This document shows, one piece after another, positions 2,640-16,357 of a DNA stretch of 59,473 nucleotides. Both the position numbers and the translations under genes were made by a program. Source of the stretch: an uncultured Enterobacteriaceae bacterium (GTDB lineage: Bacteria; Pseudomonadota; Gammaproteobacteria; Eutrophobiales; Eutrophobiaceae); NCBI GenBank assembly GCA_964509455.1, contig CAZDXS010000157.1, forward strand, positions 1 through 59,473, written 5' to 3'. Position 1 is the stretch's first letter, and the number at the start of each line of letters is the position of its first letter. The notes beneath the pieces are model-generated. The model made no database searches, was not told the DNA's origin, and saw nothing but the letters and a program-made list of their open reading frames with translations.

Positions 2640-3005
2640 GGTTTTCGCACGGCGATGCCGGGCTGTCGCCCCGGGGCGCCTCCCTAAGGGAGCAGGCGCC
2701 GCCCGGCGCATCCGGCAAGGCAATGTTGGCATGTTGCTTCGCGGTTTTGCGGTTATCCTCCGAATTTCAAGTTCCCATATTACCAGAGTTTCCCCTCGCG
2801 GCGATGCATTGTCGGCGCGGCGCTTGCTCGCCTGCGCCGCCGGGAACGGCGGCGGGCGACGCGTTGTCGGCATGGTGCGCCGCGTCCTTGATGATTTGGT
2901 TGCTGTGACCCGCGCCGGTCAGGGTTGCCTGGCGCCGAACGAATATCCCAGGTTTGCGTCCTTGCAGCGAAGCGCACCCGTTCCCCGCCTTCCCGCCTCC
3001 CCGCG

Positions 3006-4016
3006 TCAGGGATGCGCCCCAGGTTTCCGCTTTCCCTTGAACAACTCCTCCGACGGCGTCCAGTCCGTTGCCTCCCGGTCCGCCAGGCGCAACCACTCGG
3101 TGATTCGTTCCGACGGGGAACAGGGAAATCCCCAGTATTCCTCGAACAGCCGCTCGTCCAGCCTGGCGGCGGCGTTCCCCATTTCCGCCTCTATGTCGCG
3201 CAAGGCATCGATGATGTACTTGTGTCCCCGCTTTCCGCCGCGGGCACCAACGCTGCCCGCGCTGAATAAATCGCGCAGTTGCGGCGCGAATATTGCGCGT
3301 TGCGTGATCAGGTAAAGGCCCGCCCGGTCGTATTTCCCGCGCCGCCTGCCGGAGCGGGTGACTTCCGGGCACAACAGCGCGGCCTCTGCTCGCGCCTCCC
3401 GTTTTTCCTCGTCGGGCAACGTTCGGTAAACCCTTACTGCGATGGGGAGGGTATGAGACGGGTCAAGCCACCAGAGACGCTCGCCTTCCCCGAGCCGCTT
3501 TTTGGAGTATTCCCGGACGTGACGCATTTTCTCCTCGTCATCGAGGGCCGCGAATTCGTCATACCCCACCGCCAGCTGTTCAAACAGCGGGGCGCGGTCG
3601 CCGTCCATCTCGATTGCGAAGCGCGGCGAGTTGGACACGCGAACATGGGTAATGCAGTCCTCGTAGCGCCGCCATCTCACTTCCGGCGTTCCCCCGATTT
3701 TGCCCAACACAACATAGACGTCTTTTACTTTGGGGTCGCGCATCCCCTCAAAGATGCTGTTGCCCACGGCGAGCCACTTGTCCTGTTTCGTGTACTTGAC
3801 TTCAACGCCGTAGCCGTTGACCCGAATATCTGGGAAAGCGTGCCGGTGGAACGTTGGAGAAACCGCGACGTTCGCATCTCCAGCGGCGGCGCGAAGCATG
3901 GCCTGAACGCCTTGCTCAAAACTTTCCGGATCGCGGTAGCGTGCGCTCGTCCTGACACTATCAGTCAGCATCTCGACGGCGCGGTCGAGAACCAGTTCAA
4001 ATTCTTTACGGTTCAA
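3006..4016 (-). CDS. Putative type II restriction endonuclease (PD-(D/E)XK)
   Basis: FPDIRVNGYGVEVK fits PD-x(n)-EVK; TTG start overlaps the stop of the upstream C5 methyltransferase. Confidence 0.7.
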   Translation of the reverse strand: MNRKEFELVLDRAVEMLTDSVRTSARYRDPESFEQGVQAMLRAAAGDANVAVSPTFHRHAFPDIRVNGYGVEVKYTKQDKWLAVGNSIFEGMRDPKVKDVYVVLGKIGGTPEVRWRRYEDCITHVRVSNSPRFAIEMDGDRAPLFEQLAVGYDEFAALDDEEKMRHVREYSKKRLGEGERLWWLDPSHTLPIAVRVYRTLPDEEKREARAEAALLCPEVTRSGRRRGKYDRAGLYLITQRAIFAPQLRDLFSAGSVGARGGKRGHKYIIDALRDIEAEMGNAAARLDERLFEEYWGFPCSPSERITEWLRLADREATDWTPSEELFKGKRKPGAHP

Positions 4017-8205: not shown

Positions 8206-8469
8206 CAGTGTTGACCATGTCCGCTCGCCTGGATGCCGTTCCCCGAAGCGCGGCGCCTGCATCACCTTGTGCGGCGCCGCATGCGGCGCCGTGGCGCGGC
8301 GCGGGCGCACCTGCCGTTGTCGCAACGCCGCGAATGCGCCGGTGCGCAGGCGCGGCAAGCAACGCCGGCCTGGCGCGGATGCCGGCGCCCGGCGCGGCAA
8401 ACGCCTCAGCATTCTCTCCACGGCGCCCGCGAAACTGGTAAACTGGCTGGCAGGCAACAAGGCAACATC

Positions 8470-10062
8470 ATGGCATCCAAGCGCAAACAAAAAAACGACG
8501 CGAGCCGCACCGCAACCGCCGCCAACGGCGCGAATCTGGGCTTCGAGAGGCGGCTGTGGGCCGCCGCAGACAAGATGCGCGGCAGCATGGACCCCTCCGA
8601 GTACAAGCACATCGCCCTGGGCCTCATCTTCCTCAAGTACATCTCCGACGCTTTCGAGGCGCACCGCGCCGCCCTGCTGGAAAATAAACAGGCGGATGCG
8701 GAAGACCCGGACGAGTACCTGGCCGCCAACGTCTTCTGGGTTCCCGACAAGGCCCGCTGGTCCCACTTCCAGGCCCATGCCAGGCAACCGTCCATCGGCA
8801 AGATTATCGATGACGCCATGCATGCCATAGAGTCCAGGAACAAGATCCTCAAGGGCGTGTTGCCGAAAATCTACGCGCGCCCCATGCTGAACAAGGTGAT
8901 GTTGGGAGAGTTAATCGACCTTGTCAGCGGCATCGGCATGGGCGAGAAGAGCGACCGCTCGCGGGACGTGCTGGGCCGGGTCTATGAGTATTTTCTGGGC
9001 GCTTTCGCCAGCGCCGAGGGCAAAGGTGGCGGCGAGTTTTACACGCCCAGTTCCATCGTACGCCTGCTGGTCGAGATGCTGGAGCCCTACAAGGGCCGCG
9101 TCTATGACCCCTGTTGCGGCTCCGGCGGCATGTTCGTGCAGTCAGGGAGGTTCGTGGAAGAGCACGGCGGGCGCATCGTCGACGACATCGCCATCTACGG
9201 CCAGGAGAGCAACCCCACCACTTGGCGGCTGGCGCGAATGAACCTGGCGGTGCGGGGCATACCCGCGGAACTGCACTGGAACAACGAGGGCAGCTTCCAC
9301 AAGGATGCGCTGCCTGACCTCAAGGCCGACTTCATCCTGGCCAACCCGCCGTTCAACGATAAGGACTGGGGCGGCGAGCGTCTGCGGGAGGACGCCCGCT
9401 GGCGGTTTGGTGTGCCTGTGAGCAATTCCAACTACGCCTGGTTGCAACACATACGCCACCACCTGGCGCCCGGCGGCGCGGCGGGCGTGGTGCTGGCTAA
9501 CGTTACCATGTCCTCAGGAAAGTCCGACGAGGCCGCCATTCGCCGCGCCCTAGTAGCGGCAGACCAAGTGGACTGCATGGTGGAGTTGCCGGGACAACTT
9601 TTCTACACCACCTCGAGCCTCGCCTGTCTGTGGCTCCTTTCCCGCGACAAAAATGCCGACAAAAAAGGGGGGCGCGACCGCCGCGGCCAGGTGTTGTTCA
9701 TCGATGCCCGCGCCCTGGGCCGCATGGTGGACCGCAAGCACCGGGAATTTACGGACGAGGACATTGAGAAGGTGGCGCGTTGCTACCATGCCTGGCGCGG
9801 CGAACCAGACGCCGGCGAGTACCAAGACATTCCGGGCTTTTGCAAGGCCGCGACCCTGGAGGAAATCGAAGAGCGCGACTGCGTGTTGGCACCGGGACGC
9901 TACGTGGGGGCGGCGCCGGTGGAGGAGGACGGCGAGCCGTTCGCAGACAAGATGCGGCGCCTGGCCGCGGACCTGGGCGAGCAACAGGCCGAGGGGGCGC
10001 GGCTGGACGCGGAAATACGCCGCAACCTGCAAAAACTGGGCTTTGACGCGGGGAAGTCGTGA
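8470..10062 (+). CDS. hsdM: Type I R-M methyltransferase subunit
   Basis: [31 protein letters not shown]; ATG at 8470. Confidence 0.95.
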
Positions 10063-11312
10063 ACATCGACCAACAGGAAGTGGAGCGCCAACTGTGCTTG
10101 GGCGAGGACAGCCGCTGGGAATTCAAGCAAGTGGAGTTTCGCGGCGACAAGCCCGTCAGCCCGTCGCGGGATGATTTGGCCGACGAAATCGCGGCCCTCG
10201 CCAACACGGACGGCGGCGCGGTATTGTGCGGCGTAACGGATGCCGGCGCGGCCCAGGGGCTGTCCAGGGAGCAAATGGATGCTCTGGACGTGCTGGTGGT
10301 GGATGTATGCTCCGATGCCATCCATCCCCCCATAATCCCCGACACACGCCGCTTGGAAGTTGCCGGCGGCAAGCCGTTGCTGTTGGTGCGCGTTTCAGCG
10401 GGTGACGCCGTGCATGAAAGCCCCGGCGGCGACTTTCAGCGAGAGGGCAACTCCCTGCGGCGAATGACCGACGAACAGCGCCTGCGCCTGGCGCAACGGC
10501 GCGGGCAAGCGCGCTTCCTGTGGTTCGATAAGCAACCCGTGCCAGGCACCGGCTTCAACACCTTGGAAGAGAGCCTGTGGAAACCGTTGTTGAGCGCCGC
10601 CGGCGCCGCCGACCCCAGGGCGGCGCTGAAGAGGATGGGCCTGTTGATAAATGATGACAAGCAGAGGTTGCGGGCGTCGGCGGCGGGCATACTGCTGTGT
10701 TGCTCCGCGCCTGATGAGTGGTTTCCCAACGCCTGCATCACGGCTGTTTGCTATCGCGGCGAGGACCGGGCATCAGGACAGGCGGACGCGCAAACCATCA
10801 GCGGCCCGCTTCCCCGCCAAATCAAGGAAGCCGTTGCTTTCGCGGTACGCAACATGCGCGTGCCCGCTCTCAAGGCGCCGACCCGGGAGGAGCGGCCCCA
10901 GTACAGCGAACAAGCGTTGTTCGAGGCGGTGGTCAATGCCGTCGTCCACCGCGATTACGCCATCAAGGGCAGCCGGATTCGCTTGTCCATGTTTGCCGAC
11001 CGGCTGGAGCTTCAATCGCCCGGCCAGTTGCCCAACGGCATGACCGTGGACAGCCTGGGAGACCGGCAATCGGTACGCAACGAGGTGTTGGTTGCGATTC
11101 TCGGCAGGGCGCCGGTGAACGGCATTCGCGGCGGCGGCGACCGGTTGTATCTCATGGAGCGGCGCGGGGACGGCATACCCATTATTCGGCGCGAGACCCG
11201 GGCGCTCAGCGGCAAACCGGCGCAGTTCAAAATGGTGGACGGAGTGGACTTGCGCCTCACCCTGCCCGCGGCCCCGCCGCAGGCGCCGACCCCCGTCCGT
11301 CCAATGCGCTGA
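10059..11312 (+). CDS. AlbA_2 (Schlafen-like) domain + RecG-C/HATPase_c_4 domain protein
   Basis: [19 protein letters not shown] at N-terminus; [26 protein letters not shown]-terminally; GTGA overlap with hsdM stop. Confidence 0.85.
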
Positions 11313-11352
11313 GGCGCATCTCGGTAAGTTGCCGCGCTGGGACCGGGTAACG

Positions 11353-11886
11353 TGGTAAGGAAACCGCTGTTTTGTTACCATGTTCACGGCGATATGGTAA
11401 GGAAGTCGCCGTTTCGTTACCATGTCTTTGGCGATATGGTAAGGAAGTCGCCGTTTCGTTACCATGTCCTGGGCAATGTGGTAAGGAAAGTGCCGTTTTG
11501 TTACCATGTCCTCGGCGATGTGGTAAGCAAAGCACCGTTTTGTTACCATGTGCCTGGCGATATGGTAAAATAACCACCGTTTCGTTACCATGTTTCTGGC
11601 GATATGGTAAGATAACCGCCGTTTCGTTACCATGTCCACGGCAATATGGTAAGCAAACTGCCGTTTCCTTACCATGTCCTGGGCGATGTGGTAATAAAAC
11701 CGCCGTTTCGTTACCATGTTTCTGGCGATATGGTAAAGAAATCGCCGTTTCGTTACCATGTCCTCGGCGATGTGGTAAGGAAAGCGCCGTTTCGTTACCA
11801 TGCCCGCGGCAATATGGTAAGCAAAGCACCGTTTTGTTACCATGTCCTCGGAAATTTGGTAGGATAACCACAACTTTTTTATCATG
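11353..11886. repeat. Strict 42-bp tandem array (12 full units + degenerate 13th) with internal dyad symmetry TGGTAA-N16-TTACCA-N14
   Basis: TGGTAA every 42 bp from 11353 to 11815, TGGTAG at 11857; TTACCATG in all 12 full units; no indels. Confidence 0.97.
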
Positions 11887-12993
11887 TCAAAGTCAAGCGA
11901 TACCCTGACCAACCTGCCGCCAGCCGTTGACCTGGAGACGGCCCCGGTGCTGAAAGCGCTGACGACTGCCCACCGGGCGCTCGCGGAGTTGAAAGGGCGT
12001 GCCGCTACCATTCCCAACCAGAGCATTCTGGTCAATACTCTCACCCTGCAAGAGGCGAAAGCATCATCTGCAATAGAGAACATCGTTACCACCCAGGACG
12101 AACTCTTTCAGGCGGAGCTGTCTCCTGAAAATACGCAATCTGCAGCAACTAAGGAAGTAGCTCGTTACCGTGAAGCATTGAAATTGGGCTTCAAACGCCT
12201 GGAAGATTCCCAAGGCATCATCTCTAACAACACGCTGATCAAGATGTTTCAACTGTTGAAAGAAAGGAGTGGTGGCTTTCGGGAGACGCCTGGCACCGTG
12301 CTAAAAGACGGCCGCACCGGGAGAACTATCTATACGCCGCCGCAGGATGCTAACGAGATCGTGGCGTTGATGACGGACCTGGAACGCTTTGTCAACGAGG
12401 ACGATGCCTGCCCCTTGGATCCACTGACCAAGATGGCGCTCATTCACCACCAGTTCGAGAGCATCCACCCTTTCCCCGACGGCAACGGCAGGGTCGGGCG
12501 CATCCTGAATGTCCTCTACTTGGTCCGTGTCGGCTTGCTGGAATCTCCGATACTTTATCTCAGCCGCTACATTATTCGAACCAAAAATGATTATTACCAC
12601 TTGCTCCAAGCAGTGCGCGGCAACGGCGATGAGGCCGATGCGTGGAGGAAATTGGTGCTGTATATGCTGGAGGGAGTCGCGGAGACGGCGTGCGCCACGC
12701 TGGAGCTGGTGGAGGGCATGCGGGAGCAGACGGCCGCCGCCAAGCATCGCATGCGAACGGAGTTCCCCAGGATGTACTCCCAGGATTTGCTGAACAACCT
12801 GTTTCGGCACCCCTACACGCGCATCGAGTTCGTAGCGGAGGAACTGGACGTCACGCGGCACACGGCCGCCAAGTACCTGGACGCCCTGGCGGGGGCGGGC
12901 TTCGTGCGCAAGCATCGAGTGGGGCGCAACAACTACTATATTAATGAGCGGCTCGTGCAACTGTTCCTGGACGCCGCCGGCGAGTCCCAGTGA
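11884..12993 (+). CDS. Fic family protein (SoFic-like; N-terminal inhibitory helix, C-terminal HTH)
   Basis: HPFPDGNGRVGR Fic motif; SSAIEN inhibitory motif; C-terminal VTRHTAAKYLDAL...G HTH-like segment. Confidence 0.93.
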   Translation: MSKSSDTLTNLPPAVDLETAPVLKALTTAHRALAELKGRAATIPNQSILVNTLTLQEAKASSAIENIVTTQDELFQAELSPENTQSAATKEVARYREALKLGFKRLEDSQGIISNNTLIKMFQLLKERSGGFRETPGTVLKDGRTGRTIYTPPQDANEIVALMTDLERFVNEDDACPLDPLTKMALIHHQFESIHPFPDGNGRVGRILNVLYLVRVGLLESPILYLSRYIIRTKNDYYHLLQAVRGNGDEADAWRKLVLYMLEGVAETACATLELVEGMREQTAAAKHRMRTEFPRMYSQDLLNNLFRHPYTRIEFVAEELDVTRHTAAKYLDALAGAGFVRKHRVGRNNYYINERLVQLFLDAAGESQ

Positions 12994-13061: not shown

Positions 13062-13086
13062 CGACTCAAATTTGGAAACCTTGACG

Positions 13087-13473
13087 ATGGAAGCGAAACT
13101 CAAACATCTTGAATTCATTCAGGGCGTGATTAACCGCCTTGCCGCCGCCTCGTTCAGCGTAAAACGATGGGCCGTGCTCTTGGTGTCGGCGCTCATCTTT
13201 TTGCTGGCGAGAGAGGGGACGTTCGAGTTTGCCTGGGCGGGCTTTGCGTCAGTGGCGATATTCTGGGGGCTTGACGGCTACTTCCTGTGGCAAGAGCGGC
13301 TGTTCCGCGCCCTTTACGACCACGTTCGCAACCTGGACGACCGGGAGATCGACTTCTCCATGGACGCCCGCGCTTTCAAGCGCAGTTGGCTTGGCGCGGT
13401 ATTCTCCCGGACATTGGTCCCGTTTTATCTCGTGCTGGCCGCGCTGGTCGGCGCGGTGGCGTTCATTAACTAA
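13087..13473 (+). CDS. Small multi-pass membrane protein (putative TIR-associated effector)
   Basis: HLEFIQGVINRLAAASFSVKRW, three hydrophobic segments, LDGYFLWQERLFRALYD; directly upstream of the TIR gene. Confidence 0.75.
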   Translation: MEAKLKHLEFIQGVINRLAAASFSVKRWAVLLVSALIFLLAREGTFEFAWAGFASVAIFWGLDGYFLWQERLFRALYDHVRNLDDREIDFSMDARAFKRSWLGAVFSRTLVPFYLVLAALVGAVAFIN

Positions 13474-13494
13474 CCGGACCGAGAGGTGGCAAAA

Positions 13495-13938
13495 ATGGTG
13501 CGACAAGTATTTTTCAGTTTCGAGTACAAGCACGACGTATTACGGGCCAATGTTGTCCGTAAGAGTGGGCTAACTCAGGACCGTGATGATGCTGGATTTG
13601 TGGATGCTGCCGAATTCGAGAAAATTGAGAAAAGAGGTAAAGAAGCCATCAAGAAGTGGATTAGAGAGCAACTTTACGGAACGTCTGTTACTGTCGTGCT
13701 GGTTGGTTCTCATACTTGCGATAGTTACTACGTCGATTATGAGATCGAACAGAGCAAAGCACGAGGCAACGGTCTATTGGGGATTGATATCAGCGAGATA
13801 AAGGATCCAAAGAAAGGGAGGAGCCGGTGTTGCGGTATCATCCCGGCAGGTTATCCATTCTACAGTTGGTTTGGAGACGACGGTTACAAAAATATGGGCG
13901 ATTGGATTGAGAAAGCCGCCAAGGATGCCGGGCGCTGA
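13495..13938 (+). CDS. TIR-like domain protein (ThsB/DUF1863 type)
   Basis: VFFSF, GTSVTVVLVG, YVDYEI (catalytic Glu), RGNGLLGI; GAGGTG Shine-Dalgarno before ATG 13495. Confidence 0.88.
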   Translation: MVRQVFFSFEYKHDVLRANVVRKSGLTQDRDDAGFVDAAEFEKIEKRGKEAIKKWIREQLYGTSVTVVLVGSHTCDSYYVDYEIEQSKARGNGLLGIDISEIKDPKKGRSRCCGIIPAGYPFYSWFGDDGYKNMGDWIEKAAKDAGR

Positions 13939-14084: not shown

Positions 14085-15296
14085 ATGAACTGGGTAGATA
14101 CAACGGTTGGTAACTTCTGTCCATTCAAGTATGGGAAAACCCTGCGCGCCAAGGACAGAAAAGGAGGTGGCGTTCCCGTCTATGGATCAAACGGGATCGT
14201 CGGCTACCACAACGAGGCCTGTGTGGAGGGTGGCGGTGTGATTATTGGTCGAAAGGGTAGCGTTGGATGTGTACATTATTCCGACAACTCCTTTTGGCCA
14301 ATTGACACGACATTTTACGTTTCTAGCGAAGTTAAATCGGAAAATCTATTTTGTAGTTACCTGCTTTCTACCTTGGGACTACAAAATATGAACTCCGATA
14401 CGGCGGTTCCCGGGCTGAATAGAAATTATGTCCATAGCCTGCCAATTCGGATACCCCGGACTCAGAAAGAGAGAGCAAATTTGATTAATCCTCTGCGTGC
14501 CATCGACGACAAAATCGAGTTGAACCGGCGGACGAACGAGACGCTGGAGGCGGTGGCGCGAACGATCTTCAAGGACTGGTTCGTCGATTTCGGCCCCACC
14601 CGCGCCAAGATGGAAGGCCGCGACCCCTACCTTCCCCAGCACCTCGTTGATATCTTTCCAACCCGCCTCGTGAACTCCGAACTCGGCCAAATTCCGGAGG
14701 GGTGGGCGACTGGCACGGTCGCCGATCTCGCTGATCGAATTATCGACAAGGTTGATCATTTTGCTGAATGGCAAGCAGAGCCTCTTATCGATCTCAGCCG
14801 CATGCCACAGCGAGAAATCGCTTTGATGGATTGGGGCCTTGGTGGAGAGTTGACGACCTCGATCACAAGATTTCAGTTGCGAGACACGCTGTTTGGGGCC
14901 ATACGGCCATATTTCCACAAGGTTGGGGTTGCTCCTGTAAATGGCGTAACGAATGTATCAGTGTTTGTCGTTAGGGCAAAAGTGAATGCTGACTGGCCTT
15001 TTATCGCGCTCTTCTGCTCAATGAGCGATACGGTTTCCTGGGCAACGCGTGTCGCGAAGGGGACGAAGATGCCAGTCGTGAGTTGGCCGGATTTCGCTGA
15101 TGCGTCGCTCGTAGTCCCGACATCGCCCCTGCGTATGCGTTTCAATCAGATGGTAGGGCCTCTCCTTGATCGTATCATTGCGAACGCAATCGAATCCAAT
15201 GCACTAGCGGCAACACGCGACGCGTTGTTTCCCAAGCTTATCTCCGGCGAAATCCGAGTGGAGGACGTGGGTGGAGATGTCGGGGAAGCAGTATGA
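14085..15296 (+). CDS. hsdS: Type I R-M specificity subunit
   Basis: Two TRD-like halves; conserved IDDKIELNRRTNETLEAVARTIFKDWFVDF, IPEGW, LAATRDALFPKLISGE. Confidence 0.93.
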   Translation: MNWVDTTVGNFCPFKYGKTLRAKDRKGGGVPVYGSNGIVGYHNEACVEGGGVIIGRKGSVGCVHYSDNSFWPIDTTFYVSSEVKSENLFCSYLLSTLGLQNMNSDTAVPGLNRNYVHSLPIRIPRTQKERANLINPLRAIDDKIELNRRTNETLEAVARTIFKDWFVDFGPTRAKMEGRDPYLPQHLVDIFPTRLVNSELGQIPEGWATGTVADLADRIIDKVDHFAEWQAEPLIDLSRMPQREIALMDWGLGGELTTSITRFQLRDTLFGAIRPYFHKVGVAPVNGVTNVSVFVVRAKVNADWPFIALFCSMSDTVSWATRVAKGTKMPVVSWPDFADASLVVPTSPLRMRFNQMVGPLLDRIIANAIESNALAATRDALFPKLISGEIRVEDVGGDVGEAV

Positions 15297-16357
15297 AAAA
15301 AGCAGTTCGTCAATTTCGTGAAAAGGCGATCAATGCCCTGATACTCTCCATTGATCACTTCAATCGCCCTTGGGACCAAGGTAGAACCGAAGCCGTGCTT
15401 ATTATGTTCGATCATTCGTTTGAAATGCTTCTCAAGGCTGCGATCTTGCATCGACGAGGCAAGATACGAAAGCCGCGTGAAAGGCAAACAATCGGATTCG
15501 GCGATTGCGTCCGGAAAGGGCGAACTGATGTAAATCTGAAAATTCTGAATGACGAGCAGGCGCTCACACTCCAGGCAATCCACGAACAGCGCAATGCTAC
15601 CTATCACCACCTTATCGATATTTCCGAACATCATTTGTACTTCTATGCTCAGTCTGGGATTACTCTATTCCGAGACATCCATGATGATGTTTTTGAAGAA
15701 AAATTGATAATTCATTTACCCGAAAGAGTCCTCCCAATTTCCACAACTGCACCGAAAGATTTGTCCGCACTATTCGATAATGAAGTCAACGAAGTCAAAA
15801 AACTTCTGTCTCCCGGTACTCGTACAAAAATGGAGGCCATGGCAAAGGTTAGAAGCCTGTCAACGCTTGAAAACGCAGTGAATGGAAACTACGGGCAACC
15901 AGGCGATAGAGAACTTGAAAAGATATGCAAGCGCATCTCCGGCGGAGAAGCATGGAAATCCGTTTTCCCTGGCGTGGCGCTTATCAATATCTCTTCTGCA
16001 CCTGAGGGGGCGACTATCAATTTTCGTCTTACCAGAAATGCAGGGGTTCCGATCCATCTCCTGAAAGAAGAAAGGATGGGGGCTGTCGTTGCGCTACGCC
16101 GAGTGAACGAGACTGATTTTTATAATCTGGGTGCGAAGCAATTGGCTAAGAAAGTTGGGATCACGGTGCCGAAGTTAGTCGCCATCGTAGATTATCGGGG
16201 GATCCGGACGGACGAGGATTACTACAAGGAAATCCGGATCGGTAGTACGGTGCACAAGCGATATTCGCAACATGCTATTCGTAAAATTCAGAATGCTCTG
16301 GTTACCGAATCCATCGAAGAGATATGGGTAGCTTGTCAGAAAAAACGCAAGAAATAA
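15293..16357 (+). CDS. DUF3644-like HEPN-type protein
   Basis: HSFEMLLKA and RNATYH (Rx4H); ATGA overlap with hsdS stop. Confidence 0.65.
   Translation: MKKAVRQFREKAINALILSIDHFNRPWDQGRTEAVLIMFDHSFEMLLKAAILHRRGKIRKPRERQTIGFGDCVRKGRTDVNLKILNDEQALTLQAIHEQRNATYHHLIDISEHHLYFYAQSGITLFRDIHDDVFEEKLIIHLPERVLPISTTAPKDLSALFDNEVNEVKKLLSPGTRTKMEAMAKVRSLSTLENAVNGNYGQPGDRELEKICKRISGGEAWKSVFPGVALINISSAPEGATINFRLTRNAGVPIHLLKEERMGAVVALRRVNETDFYNLGAKQLAKKVGITVPKLVAIVDYRGIRTDEDYYKEIRIGSTVHKRYSQHAIRKIQNALVTESIEEIWVACQKKRKK

Follow-up and report, generated by a model that had tools for sequence, protein, structure and literature searches.

A 42-bp tandem array at the start of a SoFic-type fic gene, probably amplified from the gene's own operator

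The array and its genomic setting

The window, by which we mean the whole 59,473-nucleotide stretch of DNA analysed here (from an uncultured Enterobacteriaceae bacterium), carries a type I restriction-modification (R-M) operon with cargo genes, and a 42-bp tandem array sits within this operon at the start of a fic gene (Table 1). Twelve units of exactly 42 bp follow one another in perfect register, TRF reporting 11.9 copies at positions 11353–11851, and 24 of the 42 columns are invariant in all twelve, including TGGTAA (columns 1–6) and TTACCATG (columns 23–30). TGGTAA and TTACCA alternate at 22 and 20 bp, and the window contains 12 occurrences of TGGTAA-N16-TTACCA where chance would give 0.01. 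The thirteenth unit is degenerate yet in register, and its TTATCATG contains the ATG at 11884 with which fic starts. Alternating half-sites number 25 at the array, from −532 to −5 relative to this ATG, and together with a degenerate 40-bp remnant the array takes up all the DNA from the upstream stop codon (11312) to the fic start. The first-pass annotation had described twelve indel-free units in register, the invariant 22/20-bp alternation, a thirteenth unit supplying the Fic start codon and extended −10 boxes in units 6, 7 and 13 (TGGTAAAAT, TGGTAAGAT and TGGTAGGAT), and our analysis confirmed each of these features.

The G+C content of the array is 48%, compared with 63% for the window. Its longest internal exact repeat is 39 bp, so that short-read assembly through it is plausible. 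A weak higher-order pattern is present, in that units 4–6 resemble units 11–13. Units 6 and 7 share ATAACC and a −10 ending in T with unit 13, and unit 6 also shares the AC that follows.

Table 1. Features of the locus, in positions of the window
Feature	Position	Strand	Basis
hsdM	8233–10062		
Schlafen AlbA_2 + HATPase_c_4 gene, short 417-aa form, overlapping the hsdM stop	10059–11312	+	Pfam
Degenerate partial unit (GGCGCATCTCGGTAAG...GGGTAACG)	11313–11352	+	Sequence reading; resemblance by eye only
Twelve 42-bp units, each a long dyad A/G-TGGTAA-N16-TTACCAT (predicted operator) plus 12-nt linker	11353–11856	+	
Internal promoter-like site TTACCA-17-TAAAAT with TG, spanning units 5 and 6	11543–11571	+	Consensus match
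Predicted fic promoter: −35-like TTACCA (11837–11842), 17-bp spacer, extended −10 TGgTAGGAT (11857–11865)	11837–11865	+	Sequence reading
Unit 13, promoter-proximal, degenerate, TGGTAG...TTATCATG; extended −10 and Fic start codon	11857–11898	+	
Antisense promoter-like site TTGACA-18-TATCCT, 10/12 matches	11861–11890	−	Consensus match
SoFic-type class II Fic AMPylase gene, predicted array binder	11884–12993	+	Pfam, PADLOC, PDB
Predicted recognition helix codons, residues 325–337 (His326, 12859–12861)	12856–12894	+	AlphaFold2 and covariation
PDC-M50A/B pair (small protein and ThsB-like TIR)	13072–13938		PADLOC
hsdS	14085–15296		
DUF3644	15293–16357		

The Schlafen-type gene upstream is context and lies outside the element. 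Its homologues (roughly 65–74% identical) are mostly about 584 aa long compared with 417 aa here, and no remnant of the missing C-terminal ~170 aa was found anywhere in the window. In other 417-aa forms (L048 and L049) a separate ORF of 136–154 aa comes after, and the fic cassette may have displaced the C-terminal part of the gene here. The two genes that follow fic match the PADLOC candidate PDC-M50A/B (E = 4e-42 and 4e-43), the second also matching ThsB-type TIR proteins (E = 1.5e-52), with no ThsA-like partner among the neighbours scanned.

The fic product combines Fic_N, Fic and a SoFic-like C-terminal winged helix (Pfam: SoFic-like_C), matches SoFic in PADLOC (E = 1e-114) and SoFic structures in the PDB (E = 1e-73), and conserves the motifs HPFxDGNGR and SxxxEN (H195–R206 and S61/E65/N66); no exact protein match was found beyond this contig. 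The N-terminus M[SL]K is conserved in Fic homologues, which supports ATG 11884 as the true start. An AlphaFold2 model (pLDDT 81 overall, about 90 locally at the wHTH) places helices at residues 300–308, 314–321 and 325–337, a strand at 311–313 and the wing at 342–353. Residues 325–337 form the third helix of the winged helix, followed by the β-wing, and residue 326 is the second residue of this predicted recognition helix, within the motif V-T/S-R-x-T-A-x-K/R-Y-L. The class II Fic protein CccR, discussed below, is only distantly related to the window Fic and no matched PDB chain bears its name; the matched entry 7xux, a 380-aa 'Fido domain-containing protein' (E = 9e-12 to the window Fic), we take, as a guess, to be the CccR structure.

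Promoter elements and constraint on the half-sites

The −35-like TTACCA of the predicted fic promoter is the right half-site of unit 12, and inverted half-sites overlap both the predicted −35 (TTACCA) and the predicted extended −10 (TGgTAnnAT). A like arrangement is found in the two closest related loci, L023 (TTACCA-17-TAAAAT with TGn) and L022 (TAAGAT with TGn). The internal site in units 5 and 6 could be a relict duplicate of the proximal promoter unit, while the antisense site is made of the reverse complement of the fic start region and is directed back into the array. Simple sigma-70 scoring across homologues gave heterogeneous calls, and promoter positions therefore remain predictions.

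The predicted fic leader is ~11 nt long, without a Shine-Dalgarno sequence. The closest fic homologues likewise lack a Shine-Dalgarno sequence, with predicted leaders of ~11 nt (the window, L022, L023 and L025) or 22–46 nt (L030–L032), and clear GGAGG sites occur in the 52–57% identical group of fic genes (for example, L037 and L039). Members of the Fic family thus seem to differ in how their translation starts.

Relative to their consensus, the units differ by 61 substitutions, which belong to 26 distinct types and affect 18 columns. The 14 half-site columns are free of all 26 types (P about 1e-5); in the twelve full units, 24 of 24 half-sites are invariant next to 18 variable spacer columns, which argues that every unit is under purifying selection. 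The −10-like hexamer ends in A in 10 of the 12 internal units (TAAGGA, TAAGCA, TAATAA or TAAAGA) and in T in units 6, 7 and 13 as well as in the last units of L022 and L023. That half-sites are kept while a usable −10 has mostly been lost in the internal units fits operator-only sites, and the combination of a lost −10 T with intact half-sites is hard to reconcile with a neutral satellite.

Related loci and covariation with the Fic recognition helix

A search upstream of homologous fic genes for 42-bp arrays, which the first-pass annotation had suggested, returned an array in L022 and palindromes with a period of ~42 bp in about 25 of 29 more distant homologues. The closest Fic relatives, L022 (82% identical) and L023 (78% identical), lie on independent Logan contigs that end inside the array, L022 coming from a separate metagenome. 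L022 has at least 3.7 units to the contig end, comprising three units and the promoter-proximal unit, with one unit of 41 nt. L023 has like half-sites in at least 1.5, or about 2, units up to the contig end, the family-normal number being ~2, so that amplification is documented in just two lineages. In both, TTTACCATG provides the fic start codon, and the last unit contains TGGTAAGAT or TGGTAAAAT. The L022 units best match window units 10, 11 and 13, in that order, unit 13 being the closest to the last unit of L022 (36/42). The fic genes of the window and L022 are 75% identical at 4-fold sites. This order of units, taken with the 4-fold identity, indicates that the multi-copy state is probably older than the split between the window and L022 lineages. 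Conservation between the window and L022 exceeds that of a second intergenic region only slightly. A search for the other end of the L022 array through Schlafen homologues yielded no contig from the sample of L022.

The 29 more distant homologues (41–74% identical) come from many genera and several classes, and about 25 of them have a matching layout in 1–3 copies, rising to about 6 in the SoFic-proper clade. The operator of the family is a long palindrome, ATGxxxA-GAAAA-N4-6-TTTTC-TxxxCAT, with a period of about 41–42 bp, placed next to or over the start codon, and its half-sites occupy near-fixed positions relative to that codon (for example, −60<, −41>, −19<, 0>). Half-sites per locus number 3–7 in most cases, 10–13 in the SoFic-proper clade and 25 at the window; no clear dyad was found in the remaining four of the 29 (L013–L016) or in L035. 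Since the genes adjoining fic vary from locus to locus (Schlafen-type in L024, hsdM in L025, a membrane protein in L011), the palindromes go with fic. L011, a genome of the same family as the window whose fic homologue is 68% identical, also has a 378-bp tandem duplication (2.0 copies, 86% match) just downstream of that homologue, at 2746–3504.

No other ATGGTAA-N16-TTACCAT site occurs elsewhere in the 2.78-Mb genome, and blastn of the array against plasmid and phage collections gave zero matches. Scanning for TGGTAA-N16-TTACCATG-N12-TGGTAA gave a single chance match, in Roseburia, among 185,579 species genomes, zero matches among viral contigs and, in JGI metagenomes, only unrelated AT-rich 14-bp TACCATGGTAA arrays. 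The Ga0126335 contigs (L027–L029), retrieved solely because the search pattern is present in them, are AT-rich with long arrays of 11–14-bp units built on the full palindrome TACCATGGTA(A) and are unrelated to fic.

The half-site changes together with the predicted recognition helix. Histidine at residue 326 accompanies ATGGTAA (the window, L022 and L023; 3/3), glutamine ATGTTAA (5/5 loci) and proline ATGTAAA (one locus). Loci with leucine, isoleucine or methionine have ATGTATA in 7 of 9 cases by top 7-mer, L033 (also methionine) having ATGCTCA, and the three loci with alanine have ATGTCGA and CTTCTCA. The helix AKRQ goes with ATGTCGA at four loci. Each of these groups is a clade, so that phylogeny confounds the covariation.

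Two Fic proteins with HTH domains have been reported to bind their own upstream DNA. The Yersinia pseudotuberculosis toxin CccR, a class II Fic protein with a C-terminal HTH, represses its own promoter as a dimer. In DNase footprinting it protects inverted boxes with an ATGAT(A/T)A core, which overlap the −35 and −10, and a distance of 70 Å separates its DNA-binding helices (PMC9755527). In the array, half-site centres are 23 bp (about 78 Å) apart within units and 19 bp (65 Å) apart across unit junctions, a spacing compatible with that of the CccR helices. CccR differs from the window Fic in having one operator, of two 10-bp boxes 26 bp apart, compared with 12–13 phased operators with N16/N12 spacing, and in being a T6SS effector (PMC9755527) rather than a component of a type I R-M island.

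SoFic (MloA) of Shewanella oneidensis and the single-gene SoFic anti-phage defence (PMC12249575) share their domain architecture with the window Fic, as the PADLOC and PDB matches above attest. SoFic is about 42% identical and differs in both helix (AKRQ, compared with VTRH in the window) and half-site. Dimeric SoFic specifically binds a 100-bp fragment, F1, upstream of its own start codon; the study neither defines an operator motif nor reports a long tandem array (bioRxiv 10.64898/2026.07.09.737422). F1 has ATGTCGA palindromes: it contains ATGTCGAT-N3-ATCGACAT and a third ATGTCGA, reading ...ACATGTCGATTGAATCGACAT...TATGTCGATAAAAG..., and the helix of S. oneidensis SoFic is AKRQTASVYL. At the level of sequence, the putative rule linking AKRQ to ATGTCGA thus agrees with the SoFic-bound fragment in an out-of-sample check. 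The window Fic is, by the same reasoning, a predicted specific dimeric binder of the array half-sites. For Escherichia coli Sofic, a downstream 47-aa AS1 antitoxin gene has been reported, for which the 78-bp gap after the window fic leaves no room.

The published 300-bp SoFic upstream fragment (Table S2 of bioRxiv 10.64898/2026.07.09.737422) has distal GTATAGA-type dyads with a 41-bp period and ATGTCGA-type dyads near the start. L042–L044 likewise pair ATGTCGA sites with CTTCTCAAAAA dyads. Such mixed dyad types hint at cross-regulation between paralogous Fic-HTH proteins.

Origin and possible role of the array

The comparative evidence, together with the published behaviour of CccR and SoFic, indicates that the array is probably a tandem amplification of the operator/promoter unit of the SoFic-type fic gene itself. 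A promoter/operator array bound by the Fic HTH was one of three hypotheses put forward in the first-pass annotation, and it is supported by the existence of two self-binding Fic-HTH proteins in the literature. The accompanying statement that no described system has this layout holds for the 12–13-unit phased array but not for Fic-HTH self-operators, which have been described (CccR, PMC9755527). What was known already is thus that Fic-HTH proteins have self-operators (CccR, and SoFic as promoter binding), and what is new is their indel-free, phased amplification to 12–13 units.

We considered whether the extra repeats might carry no function of their own. An ancestral two-unit operator could have been amplified by slippage or unequal recombination into a minisatellite whose extra units are useless but tolerated, and tandem 42-bp units with exact repeats of up to 39 bp are indeed slippage-prone. 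The resemblance of units 4–6 to units 11–13 fits this origin, as do the 1–3 units with which about 25 of the 29 distant homologues make do (up to about 6 in the SoFic-proper clade) and the lack of array-like DNA in the 185,579 species genomes, plasmids and phages. We nevertheless judge it unlikely, given the invariance of 24/24 half-sites against 18 variable spacer columns (P about 1e-5), the multi-copy state of L022, whose units are apparently collinear at about 25% synonymous divergence, and the 10 of 12 internal units without the −10 T in which intact half-sites look like selection on binding without transcription. It is very unlikely that the array acts instead as a structured repeat RNA, made either from internal promoters or by read-through of hsdM and the Schlafen-like gene, whose 12 hairpins would serve as an RNA antitoxin, as a platform for processing or as a long leader that regulates fic. 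The predicted fold of the plus strand is indeed much more stable than in shuffles (z = −12.6), and also more stable than that of the minus strand (−252 versus −190 kcal/mol), but a strong fold follows from the repetition of a palindrome. For pairing and covariation inside the array, 451–474 of 500 shuffles equalled or exceeded the observed value. Inner-stem changes mostly break pairing, family-wide mismatches (24 G-T versus 17 A-C) have no strand signature, and the half-site at the −35 position is conserved although it lies upstream of the predicted transcript. Rfam gave only sub-threshold matches to miRNA models, which we took as chance. The resemblance to type III toxin–antitoxin repeats (toxI of ToxIN, cptI and tenpI) is one of position and length, with 36–45-nt tandem units directly upstream of a toxin gene, a range that includes 42 nt. 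Also in favour of an array RNA, no convincing terminator separates the upstream gene from the array, the sole terminator-like hits being two weak 5-bp stems in units 1 and 9. However, the window toxin is an AMPylase rather than an endoribonuclease, the conserved parts of its array are sequence motifs without compensatory changes, and no ToxN/AbiQ/CptN/TenpN-type nuclease was found by Pfam among the eight neighbouring products scanned. The start codon falls within the last unit, and no rho-independent terminator intervenes between array and fic; the same two weak stems are the sole candidates, fewer than shuffles allow. The proposal of a type III-like RNA antitoxin found no support in covariation, in G-T/A-C strand bias, in a convincing terminator or in a ToxN-type RNase.

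Arrays of ~10–12 phased units with short inverted repeats for HTH or RHH proteins are familiar from partition loci, namely sopC of the F plasmid (12 units of 43 bp with 7-bp inverted repeats), parC of R1 and the omega heptads of pSM19035, and the parC and omega arrays double as the operator of an adjacent promoter. This likeness in anatomy, and the Schlafen-type gene directly upstream both at the window and in L024, could point to another binder, either the Schlafen AlbA_2/HATPase_c_4 protein or a centromere-binding protein of the sopC/parC kind. We regard this as highly improbable: the palindromes accompany fic whatever lies upstream (hsdM in L025, a membrane protein in L011), the half-site covaries with the Fic recognition helix, and L024 has the Schlafen gene but just 5 half-sites. 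The window array, unlike those of sopC, parC and omega, has neither adjacent partition genes nor a plasmid context, and a toxin/defence enzyme is what we predict to bind it. Among the neighbours (hsdM, the Schlafen-like gene, fic, the TIR pair and hsdS), neither a ParA or ParB domain nor a parA/parB-type (sopAB or parMR) gene was found. Scarcely credible, and already largely refuted, is the reading of the array as an antisense (or sense) gene for a 14-aa-repeat protein, MVTKRRFPYHIAED x 12. The first-pass annotation had reported a minus-strand MVTKRR frame, open across all units, in which the recurrent substitutions are synonymous. The frame is indeed open, with an ATG in each unit, and the antisense promoter-like site (11890–11861) would suit it; two other frames are equally open, however, and three of six are so merely because 42 is a multiple of 3. 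Its synonymous fraction, 22 of 61 substitutions (0.36, against a random expectation of 0.22 and 0.21–0.31 in other frames), is the highest of the six, but 39 of 61 substitutions are nonsynonymous, there is no 3-periodicity (14/25/22 by phase), and by distinct types 6 of 26 are synonymous, tied lowest of the six, so that the claimed frame-specific bias does not stand. In L022 the 41-nt unit breaks the frame, in L023 a stop codon does so, and the repeat peptide has no homologues in 5.8 billion protein clusters.

If the array is an amplified fic operator, one Fic dimer would bind each ATGGTAA-N16-TTACCAT dyad, using the C-terminal winged helix of both subunits. Because 42 bp correspond to four helical turns, all 12–13 operators lie on one face of the DNA, which could favour cooperative, filament-like occupancy. 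The half-sites would double as promoter hexamers (TTACCA as −35-like, TGgTAAnnT as extended −10), with the last two units as the working fic promoter that bound Fic would shut off in negative autoregulation; the ten internal units without the final −10 T would serve as operator-only sites. As for the effect of amplification itself, we infer that the extra sites would give tighter, more cooperative repression and a DNA-bound pool of up to about 12–13 Fic dimers per chromosome. In decoy-site theory, a negative autoregulator with extra high-affinity sites needs more total protein to reach its repressing free concentration, and on this basis the array could store about 12–13 dimers on DNA. A further possible effect is to stop transcription that reads through from hsdM and the Schlafen-like gene before it enters fic and, further downstream, hsdS.

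A further reading, which we consider quite unlikely, is that the array goes beyond repression and is a DNA 'antitoxin' and infection sensor for a one-gene toxin, whose 12–13 same-face operators would keep most AMPylation-competent Fic dimers of the cell on the chromosome, harmless or deAMPylating, until phage attack frees them to AMPylate EF-Tu. The trigger would be phage attack on host DNA or on its topology, and how much toxin is stored would depend on the number of units. A precedent is Coxiella CbFic2, whose enzymatic state is switched by binding to DNA, and the SoFic dimer is required for both DNA binding and AMPylation (bioRxiv 10.64898/2026.07.09.737422).

SoFic is widespread as a one-gene defence against phages, and the means by which its toxicity is restrained are not yet settled. 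The locus and the family survey yield an operator model, ATGxxxA-GAAAA-N-TTTTC-TxxxCAT with a 42-bp period, a candidate specificity residue at position 326 and a natural extreme case of 25 half-sites. This extreme case makes testable the relation of operator number to toxin level, the DNA-bound toxin pool and read-through into the embedded type I R-M genes. Even if the extra sites are merely decoys, the array would still be a rare natural example of regulation by amplified transcription-factor sites.
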